Assembly: GCF_963921235.1 (NCBI RefSeq)
Contig: NC_086102.1
Span: 54,312,001-54,376,000 of the forward strand
Source: Mobula hypostoma
Lineage: Eukaryota
Length of the DNA: 64,000 nucleotides
Direction: 5' to 3'
A program made the translations under genes and the position numbers. The notes under the pieces are model-generated. The model had not been told where the DNA came from, searched no databases, and worked only from the letters and a program-made list of their open reading frames with translations. Shown here in pieces: positions 47,501 through 63,540 of the stretch. Position 1 is the first letter of the stretch. Each line of letters begins with the position of its first letter.

Positions 47501-49399
47501 CTTTAAATGCATATAATTTTTGCAACTGATTTACAAGCAAATCACTATTAATATATTAATTCACATGAACACTCATAGAGTCCTCATCCAATTACATTAA
47601 GGGATTTTCCCTCCACAAATATCCATCCATATTTTCACTCCACTGAAACTCTCACTTGGTGTGCTTGGTTCATATAACAATGATCATCCACAATCTGCCA
47701 CCAGCATTTCAATAATCTTTTGGAAATTAGACCGAGTTTTCACAATTCTAAAGACACAAATCACTGTAAGTGCTGGAATCTGAAGCAAAGAACATGGGGC
47801 TGAAGAACTGATTGGGTCAGGCAGCACCTGTGGAGTAAAATGAACAATTGACATTTATCTGGACCAGTAGAAGGGTATCAACCCTGAGACATCCACTATT
47901 TATTTCCATCCACAGAGGCTGCCTGACCCATTCAGTTCCTGCAGCAGGGTGGAGACAAAAGAGACTTCAGATGCTGGAATATAGAGCAGCAATCTGCTGG
48001 TTTTGACCAGAAATTTTCCTTTCCTCACACAAATGTTGTTTGGCCCAGAGTTCCTCTAACAGTTTCTTCATTGTTTCACAATTCTATATTATTTTTGTGT
48101 GGTCAGCCCATAGCAGCAGACAGACTAATAACAAATAAGCTGCAAGTACAGTTATAATTTTTGACTTGTTCTAAGGTAGTATTTCTGAGCATGGAAGTCA
48201 TGAGGGAGACTTTTGTGAACAACCTTCTCATGTTCTTTTAACCCAATAACTGTCTGGTTTCTTCCTCTTTTGAGTGGGAAATATAAAGTTCAGTCATCAG
48301 ATAGAAAATTCTTATAAGTTATTCATTTACAGAACGTAGGTGTGACTGACAAGATCAGTATTTATTGCTTATTCTTGACTGCCTGTCAGAAGTTAATGCT
48401 GAGCCGCCTTCTGAATCATGTGCTTCTTCTGGTGGAAATACCTGTATTGCTTTGAGGGTGGGGAGTTCCATGATTTAGGTTCCCCCAAATGGCCACAAAT
48501 ATCACCATCAACCCATTGCAGATAGGAAAACATATTTGTGCTAATTATGATTTCAGTGCCAATGCAGGACTAACAGCACCCCAGCGCCAAATTCTGATTT
48601 CACAAGTGGTTAACAGTAGGAGTCTGAAGTTATTATGACTGACATTTTGCAAATGACTCAAGGCATAACACAGTTTTTAGATGTTCTTCTGAAGCGTTGA
48701 TGTAAAAAGTGAGGAGGAGGAGATATATCTTTTTAATAGAGTAGGAGGTGATGGAATTTGGCCTCCAAGTGAGCATATACAGTAACCATTTCTGCATACT
48801 GCGTCTTGTTAACGCTACCTATAGTAAACTTGGTTTTGGAGTGGAGATGGTGTGGTTTGGACTATGTACCCATTTGCTCTGCTCATTAGCCCTACTTCAG
48901 CAGGAAACTTGTCAAATGTGAGAACAATTGAGTTAAGTGTTGGGATAATTGTGTGGCTTTGCTTGTCACCACTCTGCACTGGGAATGAGCTGGAAGCTTT
49001 CTTCATGTCTTATAATGAGAAAAGCTTGTGAAACTCATGATCAATGTTAAGCAAGGTAATGCACTTGCGCAACATTCCGTAACTAGGCCATGTAGATCAG
49101 AGTGAGCCTGTGGTGCAACGATAGTTTAATAGCAATAAACGATAAATGTAATACTTCCTTCAAAATATATCTCAAAAATGTTTACTAATGTCAAGAAAGC
49201 ATAAGACTTACTGATATTGCTGATCAAGGGCAAGTGAAGAGCGGCTGGAGATGGATATCTTTCTACACCACGTGCTTCAAGTCAATGTCAGAATTAACCC
49301 ACGCAAAATATAATGTTAAAAAACAGATTACCTACAGTAAGTGATGATCATACAAAATGAACAGTGCTTCTAGAGGCCAAATAAACACTCCACCCAGAC

Positions 49400-50100
49400 A
49401 TCCATGGGATGTCAGGCTAACTACTGAAACTAAAAGGCAGATGGTTACTTCATTATGTCTTTGGCAAAAGAAGGACAGTCTCCAAGACTGGACTTGAAAA
49501 TAGTCTTACCACACAGTCTTTAACCATTCTTGCTTCGAAAATATCACCTTTGTTGACATACTTGCTCGTGGTAGTATCTGATGAGCAGACCGGTGACACA
49601 GTGCTCACCCAGAATGACGCTTGGGTGAGGTAACTCTGAAGTAAATTGTGCTCTTTTAATACATCCTCCAACTCATAGTAATTCTTCGGAGTCAACAGGG
49701 TTCACTAAGGTATCTTTGGATTGGAAGAAGTTCCCATTTTGTGATGCACTGTACTTCCTCTGCATAAATTTGTCTTTGAACATCAAGCAGGATTCTAACC
49801 TTTTCCCAATTCCATTGCTCAACACTGAGATGTTGATTACAAATTTGCCAACCACTTCAAAGGCTGTCTTTGGCTACTTCTACAATATTCACTGTCATAC
49901 AGAAACTACTCCCATAGGGTATGAAGTGACATTGGCACCCATTGTCTGGGACGTTAGTCTTAAATACGCTGACAGTAGGCTGATGAGCATCACAAGGCAG
50001 AATTCGTCCACTATGACCCAACCTGGTCCAATATTTGTGCATAAGGTGCATACTGAACTGATGCACTGTCCACATACCTTATATGTATGGATGGTGTCTT
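49400..50100 (-). mobile_element. Bel/Pao LTR retrotransposon pol remnant (copy A)
   Basis: VQRQIYAEEVQCI and ELL*VGGCIKRAQ...HPSVILGEHCVTGLLIRYYHEQVC resemble the Bel/Pao VGGR...HPIIL..HH.T.LIIRHYH segment before the integrase Zn finger. Confidence 0.65.
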
Positions 50101-50104
50101 GGTC

Positions 50105-50620
50105 AAGCAACAGAGTCCATTTGTCACTGGAATATCTGTGCTGTACTTTTCAGCTCAAACAACATGCACAGAAACTCAGATAGGCCAAACAGGGTGCTAG
50201 CAGCAGTTTTGAGAATATCCCCTGTGCACAAAGGCACTTGATGGTAGCTCCTGACTAAGACCACTTTAGAAAAAATTATCTTTCTGGCTAAAGGTGCTGG
50301 TGGGACTGGGTAATGACTGGGGGTGGTGGTTTCATTAAGGTGGTGGTGATTTCTACATGGACTGAAACCAAGAATGGGCTTAGAGACCATGTGGTTAGGT
50401 GATGACTAAGGGCTTTCCAACCTGCGTAAAATGCCAAACATTTTCATGTTAGCAAACTCAGCCTTCGTGCTGGCCAGCTTTTCTGAGTCCAGCCTACGCA
50501 CAAAGGGATGGACCAGTAGGCCAGTTGTGGAAATGTGATGCTCACTGTCAGGCTTTGTTACTGTAGTGGAAAATGGGGACCTGGTGAGGTTTGGGAATTT
50601 TCCCAGCAGGTGTGACAACT
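50105..50620 (-). mobile_element. Degenerate Gypsy (CsRn1-like) RT fragment (copy A)
   Basis: RRLDSEKLASTKAEF, FSKVVLVRSYHQVP, FGLSEFLCMLFELKSTAQIFQ. Confidence 0.75.
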
Positions 50621-51385: not shown

Positions 51386-51562
51386 TGTTAGCATCAGTTG
51401 CCTGTACCAGACCTCTGAAGGACTCCAGTCTTGGGCATGATTGTAAATTATGGATGAGAGATCAATAAGCATATTAATAATTATATTATATGGTGGAATA
51501 GACTGTGTGAGTGTCTGAAAATGTGTATTAGAGAACAGAAACTGTGAGAAGACTGGAGGGTG

Positions 51563-53208
51563 TGTTACGTACCCTGTAATGGGTTTAAGAACCAGCAGAA
51601 ATGGAACACACCTGGAGTCTGGTTTTGCTTTTAACTAATGCTATTTTTATTAGTAACTACACGATACAGTAATATAAAACCAGATAAATCAAACAGGTTG
51701 GCAAAAATTATGCATATATAGGTGTGTAAATATAAAACCCAAACTTCTTCAAGCTTAGGTGGTAAGGGATACAGTCTTATGATAGAATGAAAACAAGGTC
51801 AGTTCTGTTCGTGTTATTGAGTTGAGTAGAATTGAGGAGAGAGAGAGAGATGTTTTGTTGTTCACGTAAGCTGATGCCGTCGATTCTTCCCATTGTCTTC
51901 CGGAACTGGCAAGTTAGCCAAATTTTACCAACTTAAGAGCGCAGTCTTCAAGTGATAATCTACCAACCCAGGCAAGGGTTAGACACACTGGTAGACTCTA
52001 TGTGGTCACTCTTTCATGCAGTAATAATCAAAGATCGATTCCTCATAATCGATCCTCAGTCCCACACTCATGGGCAAAGTGTAGTGGTAACTTCACAACA
52101 CCTTAGTGCATCTGCGTGTCCTTTTCTTCGGTGTCCTCCAAAATCCTTTAAAGTCACCGAATGTGACAACAAGAAGGACTGTCTTCTGTGGTAACGCTAT
52201 CGACCTAGGCAAGGGTTGGACACACTGATAACTTCCCACCGGTCACCCCTTTTCCACACTGCGAGAGCCACTGATTGATTCCCCCAATCGATCCTCCAAA
52301 ACCCACCCTTCTGTGTGCACACAAAGCTCATGCAGTGTCCGAATTCATGGGTGTCTCACTCCACACACGAAGCATCACAACGGTGATCTTCAACAAATAT
52401 CCTTTCAACACAAGTGGTACCACACCTGAATTCAGCTACGGGTCATCCCAAAGTGGTGGCCATAGGATACTCAAACAGAATCCACGTATGGATTATCACC
52501 AACAGTAGCCTATCACAAAGGGGACCCTCTTCAAGGGAATCACCAAACACACAACTGTGATAGTCACTTATCCAGTTCCACGACATACGAAATAACTCCA
52601 ACAGTGATTTGCCACAGGGGTGCCTTTCTTCAGTGAACTACCACACCCAAACAAGGGTAACACACACGTGGTATTCACAAAGGTCTTTCCCTCACCGGAG
52701 AACCCACTCCTGCGGATTAACGAAGTGACAATCACACATTTGTGTTCGAATGGAACTCAAACTCACCCTTTTCAGCTACTTAGGAGAGAGTCCAAACAGT
52801 CACCTCTTTGTCACTAGATTTCTTCTATTTCAAACCTTCCTCTCCCCTCTCCTCTTCCTGCAAACTTGTTCTAGTTGCAGAAAACTTGTGAGTGTCATTT
52901 ATCAATACTCAGGATCGATCTAAACTCACCCCTTCTGGGCTACTGGAAGTTTACACCAGGACCTCATTCACTGGTGTCTTTCATTGATTGAATCCATCTT
53001 GACTCTGAGCATGTGTTTTTCTGTGTCTGTAACTGTCCTTGTAAAAAGTAAACTCGCTGCAGAGAAGCCATAACATCGATTGTCCATCAAATACCTTCAC
53101 CTCTCTCTCTCTGTAGGAACTCACAAGCAGTGTCCAAAAGTCAGTCTCATTCTCCCGATGTTTAAAGTGACAGTCCACAGAAAATATGAACCCTAGGGGT
53201 ACATAACA
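51563..53208 (-). repeat. 3' LTR (1646 bp)
   Basis: tgttacgtaccc...gggtacataaca; direct repeat of 55288-56914. Confidence 0.9.
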
Positions 53209-53219
53209 TCTACCCCCAA
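53209..53219 (-). other. Polypurine-tract-like sequence
   Basis: TTGGGGGTAGA on the minus strand immediately precedes the 3' LTR. Confidence 0.65.
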
Positions 53220-53339
53220 GAAATCAAAATTTTGATCAAAGAACCAAACTTTTTTAACTGTACATTACAGAATATAAAGCAATACAAACGTGATTATCAT
53301 GTAGCACATTACAAAAGCACATACAAATACTAGTTTCTA

Positions 53340-54150
53340 TTTCACTTTTAAACTTAACATTCAGACAGTCAATCTACCATGATATTGTCTTTATTTTTCA
53401 CATGCTTTAGTACAAAAAAGTCAAATTCCTGCAAAATCATATCGTGTTATATTCAAAATGGCATTTGATCACCCATCGTCCCTTTTCCACTTAGAAACAG
53501 AACAATTAGTCATCAGGTGACCAGATTGCTTATCAGCTCAGATAACTGCCTGAACTTTACTCTGCACCGGTGCCAACTCATCAACGTTTTCCAAACCAAG
53601 CACATTTGCTGAACTTACTGAAAACCGCACTTATAAAAAGTTCCAAATAAATCATTAATTCTATCTCTGAGACCTTCAGTTCCACAGGTTTCCATAATAA
53701 CACCCACAGATGGTCCCTCCTGATCAAAACAACACTTCAGGTTTTGTCTCTCCACACCATAAACTTGGTTGTTTATTCCTAAATTCTAAAACAAACATAC
53801 TAGCACACAACTTGTTACCAAACCACTGTCCCTTCAGCAAGGTCAATGGTCCTGAAACCAATCCAGCCTTTAAATTTACCTTATTCAAAGGTTCAGAAAC
53901 AACACTTTTCTCAATATCTTCAATAACATTTACCTCACCAATTTTCATCTCATCACCAACTAACACAAGTGACTTAGAATCCTCAATTTCCACTGGTACC
54001 AAGGTTAACCCCTTATTCACTGAACCAAGTCCATCTGACACAAAAGGACTGCATTCCTTTTCAACTGAGTCAGACATCTCAGATCTAAACCGAGTTTCAA
54101 CACAAGGTTCAGTACCCTGTGGACCCACAGGTACTTCAACAACCTGAACA
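53340..54150 (-). pseudogene. Deleted pol remnant: protease-region fragment joined to the RNase H C-terminus
   Basis: PFVSDGL..VPV..PLNKVNLKAGLVSGP, then LQEFD..KHVKNKDNIMVD*LSEC* just upstream of the 3' LTR. RNase H last fits the Gmr1 order PR-INT-RT-RH. Confidence 0.6.
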
Positions 54151-54289
54151 CAGGCGATCGGAACAGGTCTCTTCTAGGCCTTCACCACTAGTCGCAGTTT
54201 CAAATTCCAGGTTACCCTGATCCTCCCAGCTGCTCTCTGGGAAACTCTCATCTGGAGTAAACTCAACGTTGTGGGTTAAAACAACCTCG

Positions 54290-54808
54290 TCCGCTAGTCT
54301 AGCAAGGTAGCAGCATCCTTTTCATCTGAGTATGCCTTTACATCATCTGGAACACACTTCTTAAATTCTTCAATCAAAACCAGCTCTATCAAGCTGTAAA
54401 AATCATCAGGGTCCAACACTGGACCTCCCAGCTGCTGACATCTCCCTCTCGAACTCTCTGTTTTTCTGCCTCTTCAGCCTCGAGCTGTTTTACTCATAAC
54501 TCAAACTCGAGCTGTTGCTGTCTCCGCTTCTCCTCAGCCTCAATTTCTACCTTAAGTCTATCTGACTTAATTTGTTCCAGTTGTATCTGGATCTCCTCTT
54601 CACCTCCAGGAAACCCCTTTAACACCTCCTCATCAAATTGCTCCACAGAGGTATAGTGTTCAGCTATCTTCCTTTGAATTTCCGTCTTTCTCATACCCTT
54701 CTTGACTTCCGTAAGTTTCAGTTCCTCAGCAATTTCCTGCAACTCATCCTTTCTAGCTTTCTTCAAAGCCACAGGGTCTGGTGAGGCCAGAATTTTCCTA
54801 ACATCCAT
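54290..54808 (-). pseudogene. Gypsy (Gmr1-type) gag remnant including a SCAN-like segment
   Basis: MDVRKILASPDPVALKKARKDELQEIAEELKL... at the N-terminus and DDFYSLIELVLIEEFKKCVPDDVKAYSDEKD...ADEVVLTH further on; internal deletion and frameshift. Confidence 0.75.
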
Positions 54809-54898
54809 TTCTGCTGTTTTTCCATACAAGCAAACCAAAAGGAATTTTCCCCACTCAGATCGATTAAGCCCCCAACAATTTTAAAATGGCTCCAAACA

Positions 54899-55164
54899 CA
54901 AACACGAGGAATTCTGCAGATGCTGGAAATTCAAGCAACACACATCAAAGTTGCTGGTGAACGCAGCAGTTCAGGCAGCATCTCTAGGAGGAGGTACAGT
55001 TGATGTTTCAGGCCGAGACCCTTCGTCAGGACTGAGGGACAGTCGACGTTTCAGGCCGAGACCCTTTGTCAGGACAGGTGAAGGGTCTCGGCCTGAAACG
55101 TCGACTGTACCTCTTCCCAGAGATGCTGCCTGGCCTGCTGGGTTCACCAGCAACTCCGATGTGT
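54899..55164. mobile_element. 266-bp palindromic Penelope-derived mini-element inside the Gypsy internal region
   Basis: 13-bp TSD atggctccaaaca (54886-54898 and 55165-55177). Inverted arms match the ends of the PLE at 58612-61566. Contains three hammerhead-type motifs. Confidence 0.85.
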
Positions 55165-55220
55165 ATGGCTCCAAACAATTTGTTCATATCCCGGATGCAG
55201 GCCTCAATTTTGTTAGGGAC

Positions 55221-55283
55221 CTGGTTAAAGGAACCTGTTTGGTAAATAGGAGATCCTGAGTTTGAATCTCAGCGGTGCCTCCA
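55221..55283 (+). other. Primer-binding site extended to a 63-nt copy of tRNA-Thr (D-loop to CCA)
   Basis: ctggttaaaggaacctgtttggtaaataggagatcctgagtttgaatctcagcggtgcctcca aligns to the recalled vertebrate tRNA-Thr(AGT) 3' part plus CCA, and ends 4 nt from the LTR. Confidence 0.8.
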
Positions 55284-55287
55284 ATTT

Positions 55288-56914
55288 TGTTATGTACCCC
55301 ATAATGGGTTGAAGAACCAGCAGAAATGGAACACACCTGGTGTCTGGTTTTGCTTTTAACTAATGCTATTTTTATTAGTAACTACACAATACAGTAATAT
55401 AAAAACCAGATAAATCAAACAGGTTAGCAAAGTTAATGCATATATGGGTGTGTAAATATAAAACCCAAACTTCTTCAAGCTTAGGTGGTAAGGGATGCAG
55501 TGTTACGATGGAATGTAAATTAAGTCAGTTTATTTTGTGTTATTGAGTTGAGTAGAATTGAGGAGAGAGAGAGAGAGAGAGAGAGAGGGGTGTTTTGCTG
55601 TCCACATAAGCCATGCAATCAATTCTCCCATTGTCCTCCGAAACTTCCAAGTTAGCCAAACTTGACCAACTTAAGATCGCCGTCTTCAAGTGATAGTCTA
55701 CCAACCCAGGCACACTGGTAGACTCCACAGGGTTGCTCTTTCACGCACCAATAATCACAGATCGATCCCTCGTAATCGATCCTCAGTCCCACAGTCATGG
55801 GCACCTGAAAGCGTAGTGGTAACTTCACAACACCTTAGTGCGTCTGCATGTCCTTTTCTTCGGTGTCCTCCGAAATCCTTTAAAGTCACTGAATGTGACA
55901 ACAAATAGGAGACCGTCTTCTGTGGTAAAGCTATCGACACAGGCAAGGGTTGGACACACTGAGAACTTGCGAGAGCCACTGATTGATTAGCCCGATCGAT
56001 CTTCCAAAACCCATCTTTTGTGGGCACACAAAGCTCATGCAGTGTCCGAATTCATGTGTGTCTCACTCCACACATGAAGTATCACTGACAGTGATCTTCG
56101 ACGAATATCCTTTCAACACAAGTGGTGCCACACCCGAATTCAGCTACGGGACATCCCAAAGTGGTGGCCACAGGATACTCAAACAGAATCCACGTATGGA
56201 TTATCACCAACAGTAGCCTATCACAAAGGGACCCTCTTCAAGGGAATCACCAAACACACAACTGTGATAGCCTCTTATCCAGTTCCACGACATACGAAAT
56301 AACTCCAACAGTGATTTGCCACAGGGGTGCCTTTCTTCAGTGAACTACCACACCCAAACAAGGGTAACACACACGTGGTATTCACAAAGGTCTTTCCCTC
56401 ACCGGAGAACCCACTCCTGCAGATTAACGAAGTGCAATCACACATTTGTGTTCGAATGGAACTCAAACGCACCCTTTTCAGCTACTTAGGAGAGAGTCCA
56501 AACAGTCACCTTTTTGTCACTAGGTTTCTTCTGTTTCAAACCTTCCTCTCCCCTCTACTCTTCCTGCAAACTTGTTCTAGTTGCAGAAAACTTGTGAGAA
56601 TCATTTATCAATACTCAGGATCGATCTAAACTCACTCCTTCTGGGCTACTAAAAGTTTACACCAGGACCTCATTCACTGGTGTCTTTCATTGATTGAATC
56701 CATCTTGACTCTGAGCATGTGTTTCTCTGTGTCTGTAACTGTCCTTGTAAAAAGTAAACTCGCTGCAGAGAAGCCATAACATCGATTGTCCATCAAATAC
56801 CTTCACCTCTCTCTCTCTGTAGGAACTCACAAGCAGTGTCCAAAAGTCAGTCTCATTCTCCCGATGTTTAAAGTGACAGTCCACAGAAAATATGAACCCT
56901 AGGGGTACATAACA
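55288..56914 (-). repeat. 5' LTR (1627 bp)
   Basis: tgttatgtaccc...gggtacataaca; the PBS follows it on the minus strand after a 4-nt spacer. Confidence 0.9.
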
Positions 56915-58709
56915 GGTGGTCTGTGTTTACGTTAAATGCAAAAACAGTCAGGTAGATCCTGTAAAAAGCAGAGAAAATGAGCAAAAGTAAAAGAAGAGAA
57001 AAACACGGAAAGAACAGGCAAAGCATCAAACATCTCAGTGATTGAAAAGGAACAATAAGCACCATAGTCTGAGGATGAACTAGATGCTGTATCCCTGACT
57101 TTCCCAGGCCCTGTTTGAACAAGGCTCATGCCAAGCGAGCTTCTTGAGTATTCGGTGAGGTTGGCTTCAGCTGAAGCCCTGCCACAGGTGGTAGTTCCCA
57201 ATACCACTACTGAAGCTGGAGGGGGGCAGAGGGAATGAATGAAATATTGATCTAAGTGTACCTCGAACTGATCCAGTGGGAGCTCGAAGAAATTGTTTCC
57301 CTTGGACTGTAGACTGGCATACAGAATCAGTGTTGGACAGGAGACAATGATGTTAGTGAATATTGTGAACGCATGCATAAATGTTTTCAAAAGCATCCAG
57401 ATTAACTCTACAAGTGGATGCCCATCCTAATAAATGTTAGGATAAATAAGTTGCAGCCTAGATTATAGGAAAACATGTACTGTTACTTGTGTGTTACGAG
57501 AAAGTTAAGTAAAATTCCCAGTGCTTTACAATATTGCCAAAAACAAATACAACATCAAGGGATTAAAGCTGTTAAGGGGAATGGGGCCAATACTTGTGTG
57601 AAACATCCCGAGCTGCTCCACTAAAAACTCTGGGCAATATTGTACTCAACTGCCCTTGCAGTTCATTTGTACCAAGCTCAGCAGGCAGTTAAACACGTTC
57701 TCAAAAACCACCCGAGCTAGAAGCTTTCTACAGTTCTTTTAATCTGAAAAACATCTGACGCTGCATAAAGTTAAGTAAAATACATATTAGATTCAACATA
57801 GTATCATCTAATACCTGAATATACCAATACTATCAATTATTTTCACGATCAATTTTAAACAAGTGAATACACTCATGCTACATTCCATACTATGCTGGGT
57901 AGATCAGAGTGAGCCTGTGGCACAACAATAGCTTCATAGCAATAAATGATAAATGTAATACTTCTTTCAAAATATGTCTTCTAAATGTTTACCAATGTTA
58001 AGAAAGCTTATGACTCACAGATATTGATGTTTCAAGGGCAAATGATGAGCGGGTGGAGATGGCTATCTTTCTGCACCACGTTCTTCAAGCCAATAACTGA
58101 ATTAACCTTTGCAAAAAATAATAAAGTAAAAAAAAAATTGGATTAGATTAGAATATGAGGATACAGTCTTCTTTTATTGTCATTTAGTAATGCATGCATT
58201 AAGAAATGATACAATGTTTCTCCAGAATGATATCACAGAAACACAAGACAAACCAGAAATGATGTTCATACAAAATGAACAATGCTTCTAGAAACCAAAA
58301 CACACCGTCCTGGCATCCATGGGATGTCAGGTTAACTACTGAAACTAAAAGGCAGATAGTCATTTCATTAAGTCTTTGGCAAAAGAAGGATTTGAAAACA
58401 GTCTTACCACACAGTCCTTAACCATTCTTGCTTCGAAAATGTCGCCCTTGATGACACACTTGCTTGTGGCAGTGTCTGATGAGCAGACCGGTGACACAGT
58501 GCTCACCCAGAAGGACACTTGGTGAGGTAACTCTGAAGTGAATTGAGCTCTCCTAATACATCCTCCAACTCATAGTAATTCTTCAGAGTCAACAGGGTTC
58601 ATTAAGGTAATCATGAGGAATTCTGCAGATGCTGGAAATTCAAGCAACACACATCAAAGTTGCTGGTGAACGCAGCAGGCCAGGCAGCATCTCTAGGAAG
58701 AGGTACAGT

Positions 58710-58738
58710 TGACGTTTCAGGCCGCGACCCTTCGTCAG
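58710..58738 (-). ncRNA. Minimal hammerhead ribozyme motif at the PLE terminus
   Basis: agtc-CTGACGA-AGG gtcgcgg CCT-GAAA-CGTC-aactg. Confidence 0.6.
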
Positions 58739-59822
58739 GACTAACTGAAAGAAGAGCTACTAAGAGATTTGAAAGTGGGAGGGGGAGGGGGAGATCCAAA
58801 ATGATAGGAGAAGACAGGAGGGGGATGGATGGAGCCAAGAGCTGGACAGTTGATTGGCAAAGGGGATATGAGAGGATCATGGGACAGGAGGCCCAGGGAG
58901 AAGGAAAAGGGGGAGGGGGGAAAAACCCAGAGGATGGGTAAGGGGTATAGTCAGAGGGACAGAGGGAGAAAAAAGAGAGTGAGGGAAAGAATGTGTGTAT
59001 AAAAATAAATAACGGATGGGGTACGAGGGGGAGGTGGGGTATTAGTGGAAGTTAGAGAAGTCAATGTTCATGCCATCAGGTTGGAGACAACCCAGACGGA
59101 ATATAAGGTGTTGTTCCTCCAACCTGAGTGTGGCTTCATCTTTACAGTAGAGGAGGCCGTGGATAGACATGTCAGAATGGGAATGGGATGTGGAATTAAA
59201 ATGTGTGGCCACTGGGAGATCCTGCTTTCTCTGGCAGACAGAGCGTAGGTGTTCAGCAAAACAATCTCCCAGTCTGCGTCGGGTCTCGCCAATATATAAA
59301 AGGCCACATCAGGAGCACCGGACGCAGTATATCACCCCAGTCGACTCACAGGTGAAGTGTCGCTTCACCTGGAAGGACTGTCTGGGGCCCTGAATGGTGG
59401 TAAGGGAGGAAGTGTAGCACTTGTTCCGCTTACAAGGATAAGTGCCAGGAGGGAGATCAGTGGGGAGGGATTGGGGGGACGAATGGACAAGGGAATCGCG
59501 TAGGGAGCGATCCCTGTGGAAAGCTGGGGAGGGGGGGAGGGAAAGATGTGCTTAGTGGTGGGATCCCGTTGGAGGTGGCGGAAGTTACGGGATTTAATAT
59601 GTTGGACCTGGAGGCTGGTGGGGTGGTAGGTGAGGACCTGGGAACCCTATTCCTAGTGGGGTGGCTGGAATGAATAGCCTCATCCTGACAGCAGATGTGG
59701 CGGAGATGGAGGAATTGCGAGAAGGGGATGGCATTTTTGCAAGAGACAGGGTGAGAAGAGGAATAGTCCAGATAGCTGTGAAAGTCAGTAGGCTTATAGT
59801 AGACATCAGTAGATAAGCTGTC

Positions 59823-60410
59823 TCAAGAGATAGAGACAGAAAGATCTAGAAAGGGGAGGGAGGTGTCAGAAATGGACCAGGTAAACTTGAGGGCAGGGTG
59901 AAAGTTGGAGGCAAAGTTAATAAAGTCAACGAGTTCTGCATGCGTGCAGGAAGCAGCGCCAATGCAGTCGTCGATGTAGCGAAGGAAAAGTGGGGGACAG
60001 ATACCAGAATAGGCACGGAACATAGATTGTTCCACAAAACCAACAAAAAGACAGGCATAGCTAGGACCCATATGGGTGCCCATAGCTACACCTTTAGTTT
60101 GGAGGAAGTGGGAAGAACCAAAGGAGAAATTATTAAGAGTAAGGACTAATTCCGCTAGACGGAGCAGAGTGGTGGTAGAGGGGAACTGATTAGGTCTGGA
60201 ATCCAAAAAGCAGCGGAGAGCTTTGAAACCTTCCTGATGGGGGATGGAAGTATATAGGGACTGGACATCCATGGTGAAAATAAAGCGGTGGGGGCCAGGG
60301 AACTTAAAATCATCGAAAAGTTTAAGAGTGTGAGAAGTGTCACGAACATAGGCAGGAAGGGATTGAACAAGGGGTGATAAAACCGTGTTGAGGTATGCAG
60401 AAACGAGCTG
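59823..60410 (-). pseudogene. PLE reverse transcriptase fragment
   Basis: FIFTMDVQSLYTSIP...FLQTKGVAMGTHMGPSYACLF...FLRYIDDCIG...LPFLDL; 5'-truncated and frameshifted downstream. Confidence 0.85.
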
Positions 60411-60699
60411 CATCTGCTCTCAGGATGAGGCTTTTCATTCCAGGACGAGGGAGATGTCCTCCTTTTTTAAAGAAAGGGGCTTCCCTTCCTCCACCATCAA
60501 CTCTGCTCTCAAATACATCTCCCCCATTTCATACACATCTGCTCTCACTGCATCCTCCCGCCACCCCACTAGGAATAGGGTTCCCCTGGTCCTCACCTAC
60601 CACCCCACCAGCCTCTGGGTCCAACATATTGTTCTCCGTAACTGCCGCCACCTCCAATGGAATCCCACCACTAAGCACATCTTTCCCTCCCCCCCTCTC

Positions 60700-61180
60700 T
60701 TTCTGCAGGGATCACTCCCTACGCGACTCCCTTGTCCATTCGTCCCCCCCATCCCTCCCCACTGATCTCCCTCCTGGCACTTATCCTTGTAAGCGGAACA
60801 AGTGCTACACTTCCTCCCTTACCACCATTCAGGGCCCCAAACAGTCCTTCCAGGTGAGGCGACACTTCACCTGTGAGTCGGCTGGGGTGATATACTGTGT
60901 CCGGTGCTCCCGATGTGGCCTTCTATATATTGGCGAGACCCGACGCAGACTGGGAGATCGTTTTGCTGAACACCTACGCTCTGTCCGCCAGAGAAAGCAG
61001 GATCTCCCAGTGGCCACACATTTTAATTCCACATCCCATTCCCATTCTGACATGTCTATCCACGGCCTCCTCTACTGTAAAGATGAAGCCACACTCAGGT
61101 TGGAGGAACTACACCTTATATTCCGTCTGGGTAGCCTCCAACCTGATGGCATGAACATTGACTTCTCTAACTTCCGCTAA
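60700..61180 (+). pseudogene. PLE GIY-YIG endonuclease fragment
   Basis: VIYCVRCSRCGLLYIGETRRRLGDRFAEHLRSVR...PVATHFN...LEELHLIFRLGSLQPDGMN*. Confidence 0.85.
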
Positions 61181-61959
61181 TGCCCCACCTCCCCCTCTAT
61201 TTGTCTATTTATATACACACATTCTTTCTCTCACTCACCTTTTTCTCCCTCTGTCCCTCTGGCTGTACCCCTTACCCATCCTCTGAGTTTCCCCCCCCCC
61301 ACTTTTCCTTCTCTCTGGGCCTCCTGTCCCATGATCCTCTCAATTCCCTTTTGCCAATCACCTGTCCAGCTCTTGGCGCCACCCGTCCCCCTCCTGTCTT
61401 CTCCTATCATTTTGGATCTCCCCCTCCCCCTCCCACTTTCAAATCTCTTACATAGCTCTTCCTTCAGTTAGTCCTGACGAAGGGTCTCGGTCTGGAACGT
61501 TGACTGTACCTCTTCCTAGAGATGCTGCCTGGCCTGCTGCGTTCACCAGCCACTTTGATGTGTGTTGTTCATTAAGGTAATGTTAGATTGGGAGAAGTTC
61601 CCGTTTTGTGATGCACTGTACTTCCTCTGCATAAACTTGTCTATTGAACAGCAAACAGGATTGTAACCTTTTCCCGATTCAGTTTCTCTGTGCTGAGAGG
61701 TTGCTTACAAATGTGCCAACCATCCAAAGGCTGACTTTGGCTAATCCTACAATATTCACTGTCGTATAGAAACTACTCCCATAGGGTCCGAAGTGACTTT
61801 TGCACCCATTCTCCAGGACACTAGTCTTAAATACGCTGACAGTACGCTGATGAGCACAATCAAGGGAGACCGCATTCTCTATGACCCAACCAGGTCCAAT
61901 ATTTGTGCGTAAGGTGCATAGTGAACTAATGCACTGTCCATGTACCTTATGTCCCTCCC

Positions 61960-63540
61960 AAGCAACAGAGTCTTTAGTCGCTGGAATGTCTGTGCTGAAT
62001 TTTTCAGCTCAAGTAGCATGCACAGAAACTCAAGTAGGCCAAACAGGGTTCTAACAGCAATTTTGAGAATACGTATCCTCAGTGCCCACAGGCACTTGAT
62101 GGTAGCTCCTGACTAAGACCACTTTAGAAAAAAATACCTTTCTGGCGAAGCGTGCTGAAAAGTGTTGGTGGGACTGGGTAATGACTGGGGGTGGCAGCAA
62201 CCAAGATTGGGCTTCGGGACCATGTGAAGGGGTGAAGCCCAAGGGCTTTTCATCCTGCGTATAATGCCAAGCATTTCCATGTTAACAAACTCAGCCTTCA
62301 TGCTGGCCGGCTTTTCTGAGTCCAGCCTATGCACATGGACCAGTGAGTCAGCTGTGGAAATGTAGTGCTCAACCCCAGGCTATGTAACTCTGGTACAAAA
62401 TGGGGACTTGCTGAGGTTTGAGAATATGCCCAGCGGGTGGGTAGTCACTTATGGTGGTGCATGCACTAGACAGAATTGTTGTGAGAAACTTACTGGGTCT
62501 ATAGGGTAATGACCCAGAGCTCGTTGTGTCCACAATTTGGCAGTTCCTAAGATCTACTCACCGTGTTTTGGTGCACAGGAAATATGCATACAGCAGAGAT
62601 CCAGCAACTTTAGCAAGATAAAGTTCATATGCAGCATTGACCACTGAAGCAAAGCATCACGCGTTATGTCCCATAAGTCCGGATCCAGCTGCCGTTAGCA
62701 GCCTCCAGTGAGGGTCCTTTGTTCTCTACCTTTTAATCAATTGTCAATACTGGCAGCAAAGTTACTTGAGTGCATGTGTCACACAGGAAGCCTCACCTGA
62801 AAGGGTGTCCTTAATGAACAGCAGACTATCCTGGCAGCTATCCATGGAGTTCTCAGACCTCTGATGTCCCAATGCGCCTAGCACTGTCAAAGCTGTCACT
62901 TACTGGCATTCATGCTGAAGTGAGCATGTTAAAAACATAGACCTGGTATTGTCTGGTTCGGAGCCGTGGGCATGAGTCTGCTGGAAGGTCTGCTGACAGG
63001 GCTTATTGAGACAGGTAAAGAAGGAGGGACAATGCACTTCTGTCTGCCTAAGAAAGTCCATTAGAGCAAGTTCCCCATCATCCTTCAGGACTATTCAAAT
63101 TTGATCAGGCAAAAAAGCTCTTTAAAAATAAAATATGGATGGTGATTGCCTAGTAGAAGTAGCACATAGTCTGTTAGTTCTGAAGGTCTAACATCATCCA
63201 GGCTGGGCAAATTGATCCACTGTTTGCTGTGCTCGGACTTAGACAGTTCAAAAGTCTGTAATGGGTGAGTTTTCAGAGTGACTTATTTATCAGTTGCAGG
63301 TGGGTCTTCTAGTAGACTCACCACTCTGGCTGCAGAGGAACTACTCAGCAATGCAATGGCATGGTAAGATCTGGTATGTCTGTGGGGATTTCTCACAGTG
63401 CAAACTGGGCTTCTGTCTGTGCAAACATGTGGATGCATGCTGCTCCCAAAATTCCAGCAGCTTCAAACTGACTGCATTGGTTGACATATCATTGAGTAAC
63501 TCCGGAATTATCCAAGTGTCAGGGTCACCAATGTAGGATT
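61960..63540 (-). mobile_element. Degenerate Gypsy (CsRn1-like) gag-protease-RT remnant (copy B)
   Basis: AVSLKLLEFWEQ (gag), FLCDT and LEAANGSWIRTYG (protease), SPWASPLHMVPK (RT). Confidence 0.75.

Follow-up and report, generated by a model that had tools for sequence, protein, structure and literature searches.

An over-copied tRNA-Thr at the primer-binding site of a Gypsy element in Mobula hypostoma: a probable record of tRNA modification and of a primer switch

The 5′ LTR of a Gypsy retrotransposon in Mobula hypostoma adjoins 50 nt of tRNA-Thr(AGT) text, and this copy was probably written by a reverse transcriptase (RT) that ran past m1A58 on a mature, modified primer. Judged from sequence comparisons, the structure appears to be the product of a genuine and repeated accident of reverse transcription, one in which tRNA chemistry is recorded. 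The element lies in a 64,000-nucleotide stretch of contig NC_086102.1 (positions 54,312,001 to 54,376,000), here called the window. It is a pol-less, Gmr1-like copy on the minus strand and belongs to a family whose usual primer site is of the tRNA-Pro type. A second U5 end and an old Pro-type site stand behind the Thr copy. Therefore, the locus records a primer switch. An initial annotation of this DNA, made from the letters alone, had overlooked the duplicated U5 end and the older site, and hence the switch.

The features of the element are given in Table 1. Its LTRs are 90.4% identical by blastn, and 94.0% identical across 1604 ungapped columns. Only 2.1 kb of interior is present; no integrase or RT frame of at least 80 aa was recognised in the window copy, and two frames scanned against Pfam gave 0 matches. 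The domain order is supplied by longer family copies (loci are designated by L numbers). In L185 the order is SCAN, integrase, RT/RNase H. The SCAN domain of L185 is a Pfam match (E 1e-10); none was found in the broken window copy itself, which gag similarity ties to the SCAN-bearing L185. Integrase is likewise upstream of RT/RNase H in L189 and L184. Gmr1-like elements, as described in the available part of one report, have a SCAN-type capsid and an integrase placed before RT/RNase H (10.1101/2025.03.03.638093). The longer family copies share both traits with these elements, whereas the window copy has lost integrase and RT. Taken together, the domain order in the longer relatives, the LTRs and the short duplication appear to identify the element as Gmr1-like. 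The family is large, with 434 candidates for the gag start, 40 of which were scored.

Table 1. Features of the Gypsy element and its primer-site region in the window
Feature	Position	Strand	Basis
5′ LTR, TG...CA with inverted ends	55288..56914	-	blastn pair with 51563-53208
4-nt spacer, LTR to primer site	55284..55287	-	sequence; identical spacer in family copies
18-nt primer-binding site, tRNA-Thr(AGT) positions 59-76 with CCA	55266..55283	-	18/18 identical to host gene plus CCA
Over-copied tRNA-Thr, positions 27-58	55234..55265	-	alignment to host gene
Duplicated U5 end, subfamily differs from outer LTR	55211..55235	-	alignment to family U5 ends
Older Pro-type primer site, variant form, over-extended to G53	55182..55206	-	family comparison; T at position-58 equivalent (55187)
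Later leader insertion, inverted pair of a common short repeat	54899..55164	.	13-nt duplication 54886-54898 / 55165-55177
gag start, broken	54494..54808	-	53% identity to gag start of L185
Remaining internal region, broken and internally deleted	53209..54493	-	frame list
3′ LTR	51563..53208	-	blastn pair
4-nt target-site duplication	left 51559..51562, right 56915-56918	.	sequence

The leader insertion is 266 nt long. A microRNA identity of 54943-55161 (Rfam) was rejected, as the score is below the cut-off and the sequence is that of the fold-back insertion. Elsewhere in the window, 58645-61567 is an inverted repeat of ~1 kb with an RT-like frame (Pfam RVT_1, E 2e-6, below cut-off), which looks like a Penelope-type element. 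Its end resembles the leader insertion. An older duplication, 79-85% alike (49035-50612 versus 57843-58609 and 61567-62439), flanks the element on both sides.

Positions 55234-55283 correspond to positions 27-76 of tRNA-Thr(AGT), CCA included, and are identical to the host gene L002 plus CCA at 46/50 positions; host tRNA genes are matched by the copy at E 3e-11. The tRNA 3′ part ends in CCA, is antisense to the element and lies 4 nt inside the 5′ LTR. Host tRNA genes do not encode CCA. ARAGORN finds no tRNA gene in the window, positions 1-26 are absent, and the Rfam tRNA score of the copy, 21.5 bits, is below the cut-off of 29. In half-tRNA priming, as in copia and Ty5, the primer site matches the anticodon arm rather than the 3′ end. 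The site adjoining the LTR here is the CCA end, which sets the locus apart from that type.

Two host isodecoders differ in the T-stem: CTGAG/CTCAG, found in L002-L005, and CTGGG/CCCAG, found in L090. The copy has A52 of the former and is identical to the latter at 44/50 positions. That is, the CTGAG/CTCAG stem, earlier read as a compensatory change, is simply that of a host isodecoder. Four differences separate the copy from the L002-type gene: C32T (55239), A34G (55241), C40T (55247) and C56T (55263). A58 is unchanged (55265). The GGT anticodon and T32 had been named at the outset and are present; C40T and C56T had been overlooked. The latter two are ordinary decay and, being C>T changes at unmodified sites, they count against a modification reading, as does the unchanged A58.

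The match to tRNA-Thr had initially been put at 63 nt. Fifty of these are real tRNA text, and the other 13 (55221-55233) are LTR. If copying by RT had run through all 63 nt as far as the D-loop, with GAA as a misreading of m2,2G26, an 8-letter D-arm word would be expected about where one is found, at the right distance, and no 5-nt deletion in the inner U5 would be needed. However, the D-arm word and the GAACC that follows it are native to the family U5. Positions 55205-55235 align with the U5 end of L017/L182 at 31/31 letters, allowing for a 5-nt deletion and a 1-nt insertion, and GGAACC also stands in the duplicated U5 of the Thr copy L009, where tRNA text stops at 34/35. Because of this alignment and the L009 letters, 55221-55233 is assigned to the LTR, with an 8-letter word in common with the tRNA D-arm. 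Under the 63-nt reading, two substitutions and an insertion must rebuild LTR text by chance, and 55221 corresponds to T rather than C in the source gene. This reading appears largely refuted and is very improbable; the supposed m2,2G26 misreading at 25-26 consists of letters from the duplicated LTR end. With the boundary placed at 55234, CC at 55234-55235 is common to the U5 end and tRNA positions 27-28, and forms a 2-nt microhomology.

Along the element there follow, in turn, the LTR, the Thr site, the over-copied tRNA, a second U5 end, the old Pro-type site and the leader. The same extension was sought in other copies of the LTR family, and eight more Thr-type copies with the same build were found. 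Among 59 copies with LTR and leader, 50 are Pro-type, 8 have the Thr build and 1 is a Pro over-copy with the same duplication; L169 is counted as Pro in this set, and the addition of L010 gives nine Thr-type copies. A pattern search gave 5 Thr sites, all extended, among the first 100 of 246 matches listed (control 18). tRNA text stops at 27 in the window copy and L078, at 32/33 in L006, L010, L048, L050 and L056, and at 34/35 in L009 and L045. Each Thr-type copy joins U5 through a 1-2 nt match.

The inner U5 differs in type from the outer U5 in 6/6 copies that keep an inner U5, and its type is carried by 12/50 ordinary copies. The differing types would fit a jump from the product of one RNA to that of another, or the descent of most copies from a single founder. 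Masking of its own primer site by the inner U5 type was considered and was not supported (9.4 vs 6.7 paired letters, p = 0.07; energy, p = 0.43). The U5 tree rejects a single Thr clade (p-AU 3e-58; at least 4-5 changes), although this tree is no event counter, since U5 and leader may derive from different RNAs through recombination. A gag-side tree was set aside, as deletions make its rows non-homologous and its U5 types were mislabelled.

The tRNA parts themselves also vary. The window copy has A52/T62, and L006, L009, L010 and L045 have G52; L006, with G52 and T62, is a hybrid of the two isodecoders. TGT at 29-31 after AACC occurs in 1/66 of the U5-type ends scored, i.e., in the window itself (L078 falls outside that pattern). 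A52/T62 and the TGT point to fresh tRNA copying in the window lineage. T-arm skips or repeats are found in L048, L050, L056 and L078. These skips span the stretch from one ATC word to another (46-48 and 59-61), and in some cases a repeat follows, as a stall at position 58 with re-annealing would produce. The L006 hybrid, the A52 of the window copy, the T-arm skips and the TGT are signs of later rewriting. The window copy may be a founder, or it may have rewritten an older leader of the 33 type; in both cases the tRNA itself must have been read to 27.

The Pro-type site has a history of its own. Most family copies, exemplified by L094-L110 and by 55182-55206 of the window, have the variant Pro-type site (one insertion, one substitution), in which position 58 still varies. 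A host tRNA behind the variant was sought and rejected: 17/17 exact matches are element copies. In L190 (G000:C2:145399848), the family LTR is followed by a different CCA-ending site, matched to no tRNA.

Position 34 is G in 7/7 Thr copies in which positions 33 and 35 match the tRNA. Across the genome, the anticodon pattern has 41 matches, with 30 A, 10 G and 1 C at this position. Nineteen of the 30 A34 matches were opened, and all are gene-like, without CCA or LTR. The 10 G34 matches comprise six family copies, L074 (another LTR family), L075 (decayed, gene-like) and two short matches. In a second set of 17 matches, all 6 CCA-ending ones are LTR-linked. Searches with host tRNA-Pro, Leu and Ser genes gave further over-copies beside other LTR ends, and G34 was found in 6 unrelated copies (Pro L249, L256 and L261; Leu L334; Ser L466 and L468). 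The Pro copies spanning the anticodon have 3 G, 4 T, 2 C and no clean A, L251 being ambiguous (readable as A34 with G37 deleted). Nine A/G matches to the Pro anticodon pattern include 8 A34 genes; the ninth is the LTR-linked L261. Leu copies have G (L334) or T (L332), and the two Ser(AGA) copies, L466 and L468, both have G.

No clean A34 was found among the over-copies examined (Thr, Pro, Leu, Ser). The local aligner ran into flanks in L006, L009, L013, L252, L266, L425, L463, L464 and L467, and its "A34 kept" for L013 and L467 lies past their true ends (41 and about 47). The background mismatch at other A sites is 8/322, rates from this aligner being upper bounds. There are counter-cases: L075 and L360 are decayed gene-like loci with G34 but without CCA. 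Further, L468 has no visible LTR end, and the LTR end of L249 is only a stub. RT reads inosine 34 as G, according to the available portions of two tRNA studies (PMC5066629; PMC11417395). The modification map used here is taken from human, yeast and zebrafish papers, not from this animal's tRNAs. The G34 pattern is best read as an inosine record; that such a record exists in the window copy, as first suggested from the letters, is now supported by its relatives, namely the Thr copies and six other loci.

A GGT anticodon might also have been acquired at the DNA level, if a GGT-bearing tRNA gene, pseudogene or SINE head was captured and then decayed at random. One decayed tRNA-Thr(GGT)-like locus, L075, is indeed present, and the element is aged, its LTRs being 94% alike. 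Yet the acceptor stem of L075 differs, and the search for a host tRNA-Thr(GGT) gene found no intact one with the acceptor stem of the copy, as the initial annotation had anticipated. Moreover, the non-encoded CCA end falls precisely where a primer would sit, other families have G34 in their Pro, Leu and Ser copies, and no more than 1.6% of A>G decay is seen per LTR site. Capture is hardly credible, and we retain inosine as the source of G34.

C32 is changed in 3/4 of the Thr/Ser copies that pass 32 (T in the window, T in L466, A in L468, C in L078), against a background at non-CpG C of 21/498 (at most 4.2%). Without the window, 2/3 are changed (p = 0.005), or 2/4 (p = 0.01) when L473, which lacks CCA and keeps C32, is included. 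The Ser copy L466 repeats the triple signature of the window (end at 27, T32, G34) in another tRNA and another family; the Ser searches were run after the C32/G34 idea was formed. Thr and Ser tRNAs carry m3C32 in human cells, and m1G, m2,2G and m3C give RT stops, as stated in the available part of PMC5066629. The C32 changes likely reflect m3C32. This earlier proposal is favored by the excess of changed copies, whereas the single C>T of the window is inseparable from decay.

A58, unchanged in the window copy, has been replaced in 8/50 over-copies, five times by G and three times by T (p = 3e-4). The leaders of the 50 ordinary copies follow the Pro T-loop as far as G53; at position 58, T is found in 30 of them, A in 15 and G in 5. 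In contrast, positions 53-57 and 59-61 are constant in 47-50 of the 50. Position 58 of the ordinary copies, which are not a random sample, has undergone at least 10 changes on the U5 tree. Read-through past position 58 on a mature primer, also part of the first interpretation, finds support in these related copies.

End points of over-copies were taken with one row per lineage, from copies reaching position 42 or further, and were curated by eye; L251, L266, L342, L345 and L425 were judgement calls. Left out were intron-bearing tRNA-Pro genes, decayed gene-like loci without CCA, duplicates and shorter copies (L209, L210, L331, L361, L449, L464, L465, L467, L476). Seven identical Pro-extended copies on small contigs make one count; two pairs of them, when compared, were 99.8% and 94.6% alike over kilobases. 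On this basis, 16/31 Pro/Leu lineages end at 37-39, 11 of them exactly at 38 (p = 2e-5 versus a constant stop rate), and Leu alone gives 8/11. Both of these tRNAs have G37. No Thr lineage ends there (0/8 versus 16/31, p = 0.012, rising to p = 0.23 when the Thr family is counted as a single event). Ends at 26-27 are found in 4/7 G26-type copies passing 32, as against 2/8 tRNA-Pro copies with T26 (p = 0.31). A stop at 37/38, ascribed to m1G37, appears well supported in Pro and Leu. The stop at 27 in the window may record position 26 as the place where copying halted. The placements assumed here include m2,2G26 on tRNA-Thr(AGT) and m1G37 on tRNA-Pro. One study gives no G37 signal for human Pro(AGG) in its available part (PMC8062790).

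Such ends need not mark modified bases. The primer could have been a cut 3′ fragment of a mature tRNA, or RT could have paused at structure, so that the end lies at a break or a stem. The tRNA-Pro copies L249 and L254 end at 26-27 without G26, and the anticodon loop is a common tRNA cleavage site. In addition, the 3′ exon of intron-bearing tRNA-Pro starts at 38, and the Pro peak could stem from exons left unligated. No intron is present in the Leu genes seen, yet Leu lineages end at 37-39 in the proportion given above. Thr copies read on beyond 37-38 to end points at 32/33 or 27, and position 27, being in a stem, is an unusual cut site. We consider cutting or pausing an unlikely account of the ends. 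Were it true, the inosine record would stand, and the end points would be no modification map.

The searches also brought up several unusual loci. In L074 989-1045 (G000:C1:36200747), in another LTR family that uses a tRNA-Leu primer, the Leu 3′ end is fused via the shared T-arm to tRNA-Thr 30-60, and this two-tRNA chimera then folds back into inverted pol sequence. A third LTR family has a Thr primer (L013/L156, G000:C1:209574884); one copy is over-copied to 41 and joined to apparent inverted coding sequence, and L132 is an ordinary copy. At L226 and six more small-contig places, a Pro over-copy to 42, with T58 and a duplicated old site, was multiplied in a repeated block. The Pro over-copies L211 and L257 are flanked by an inverted copy of the LTR end. 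L473 is a tRNA-Ser(GCT) fragment from 27 with T58, without CCA or LTR end, and is perhaps a retrocopy by another route. Many host tRNA-Pro genes, such as L216-L229, L262, L271 and L370, have an intron after position 37; ARAGORN without intron mode miscalls these genes.

We suggest the following course of events. tRNA-Thr would have primed an RNA of a family built for tRNA-Pro, its predicted duplex on the Pro-type site being -17 to -23 kcal/mol versus -30 to -42 for Pro. The plus-strand copy would then misfit the Pro site, or would simply over-run, and RT would continue into the tRNA. There, it would read inosine 34 as G, likely misread m3C32 as T, and stall after C27, beside G26. Through the 2-nt CC match, the enzyme would then jump to minus-strand DNA copied from another RNA, itself unprimed, and land on the U5 end. 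This jump would duplicate that U5 end along with its old primer site. RTs extend 2-nt C/G matches in vitro, in an assay with a different strand layout (PMC3035444, available part). The product would integrate with a 4-nt duplication, and the Thr-primed form likely replicated further, its tRNA part being partly rewritten in later rounds.

A more general proposal has two parts: that read-through plus a microhomology jump is a working route of primer change that founds new lineages, and that over-copies amount to germ-line, single-molecule tRNA-seq, in which I34, m3C32, m1G37, m1A58 and m2,2G26 could be mapped for each tRNA and dated by LTR age with nothing more than an assembly. We lean slightly towards this proposal. 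Retroviral over-copying has been held to be a dead end; here, several LTR families contain integrated products of this kind, and the Thr form appears to have gone on replicating after over-copying. Assemblies of unprofiled animals hold a datable germ-line record, provided that both the end points and the misread letters track the modification map. Such a record would, if true, reveal the tRNA isoacceptors packaged and their modifications, and also the way in which elements switch primers. No host function is changed; the value lies in the record and the mechanism. The locus itself adds a primer switch with the old site retained, and an m3C32 signal repeated in tRNA-Ser. A literature search, thin in its coverage of subscription and older work, found no paper on genomic over-copies as modification records. 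Cloned retroviral DNAs of the 1980s reportedly carried extra tRNA text.

The nearest known case is HIV-1. According to the available parts of two papers, HIV-1 RT makes minor products that end at 55, 54, 37 or the tRNA 5′ end, and only products ending at 58, 55 or 54 are held to be productive (PMC13191261; PMC8599865). The over-extended plus-strand strong-stop DNAs (P1, P3-P5) resemble the Mobula over-copies in that RT passes m1A58 and stops at later modified bases, including 37. As far as those accounts go, the HIV-1 products come from in vitro work or mutant cells, and those past 54 are unable to finish or integrate. In contrast, the Mobula over-copies are integrated and inherited, belong to a Gypsy-type RT, and reach positions 27 and 7. 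Unlike the HIV-1 products, they would have been rescued by a microhomology jump. The lentiviral primer over-extension sequence, as presented in the available part of PMC13191261, has a counterpart in the Mobula family leader, which matches the T-loop to G53 beyond the 18-nt site. The Mobula sequence differs in that position 58 is hypervariable, as if misread, and the Thr copy is 26 nt longer.

Ty1 and Ty3 strictly inherit their own primer site, not primer text, and mouse ERV primer sites were seen to bear no modification signature, so far as the available text of one source extends (PMC7472051). The same text describes primer switching in ETn, MLV and HIV, where, as in Mobula, primer text is copied into DNA and a lineage changes its tRNA. 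The Mobula Gypsy family differs from Ty1, Ty3 and the ERVs so described in that it inherits tRNA text, retains the old site behind the new one, and carries signatures. Finally, the available portions of tRNA-seq maps show the same kinds of marks, i.e., I34 as G, errors at 32 and 58, and stops at 37 and 26 (PMC5066629, PMC8062790, PMC11417395, PMC4787781). As against those maps, the Mobula records would be the work of the element's own RT in the germ line, fixed in chromosomes and derived from one molecule per locus.
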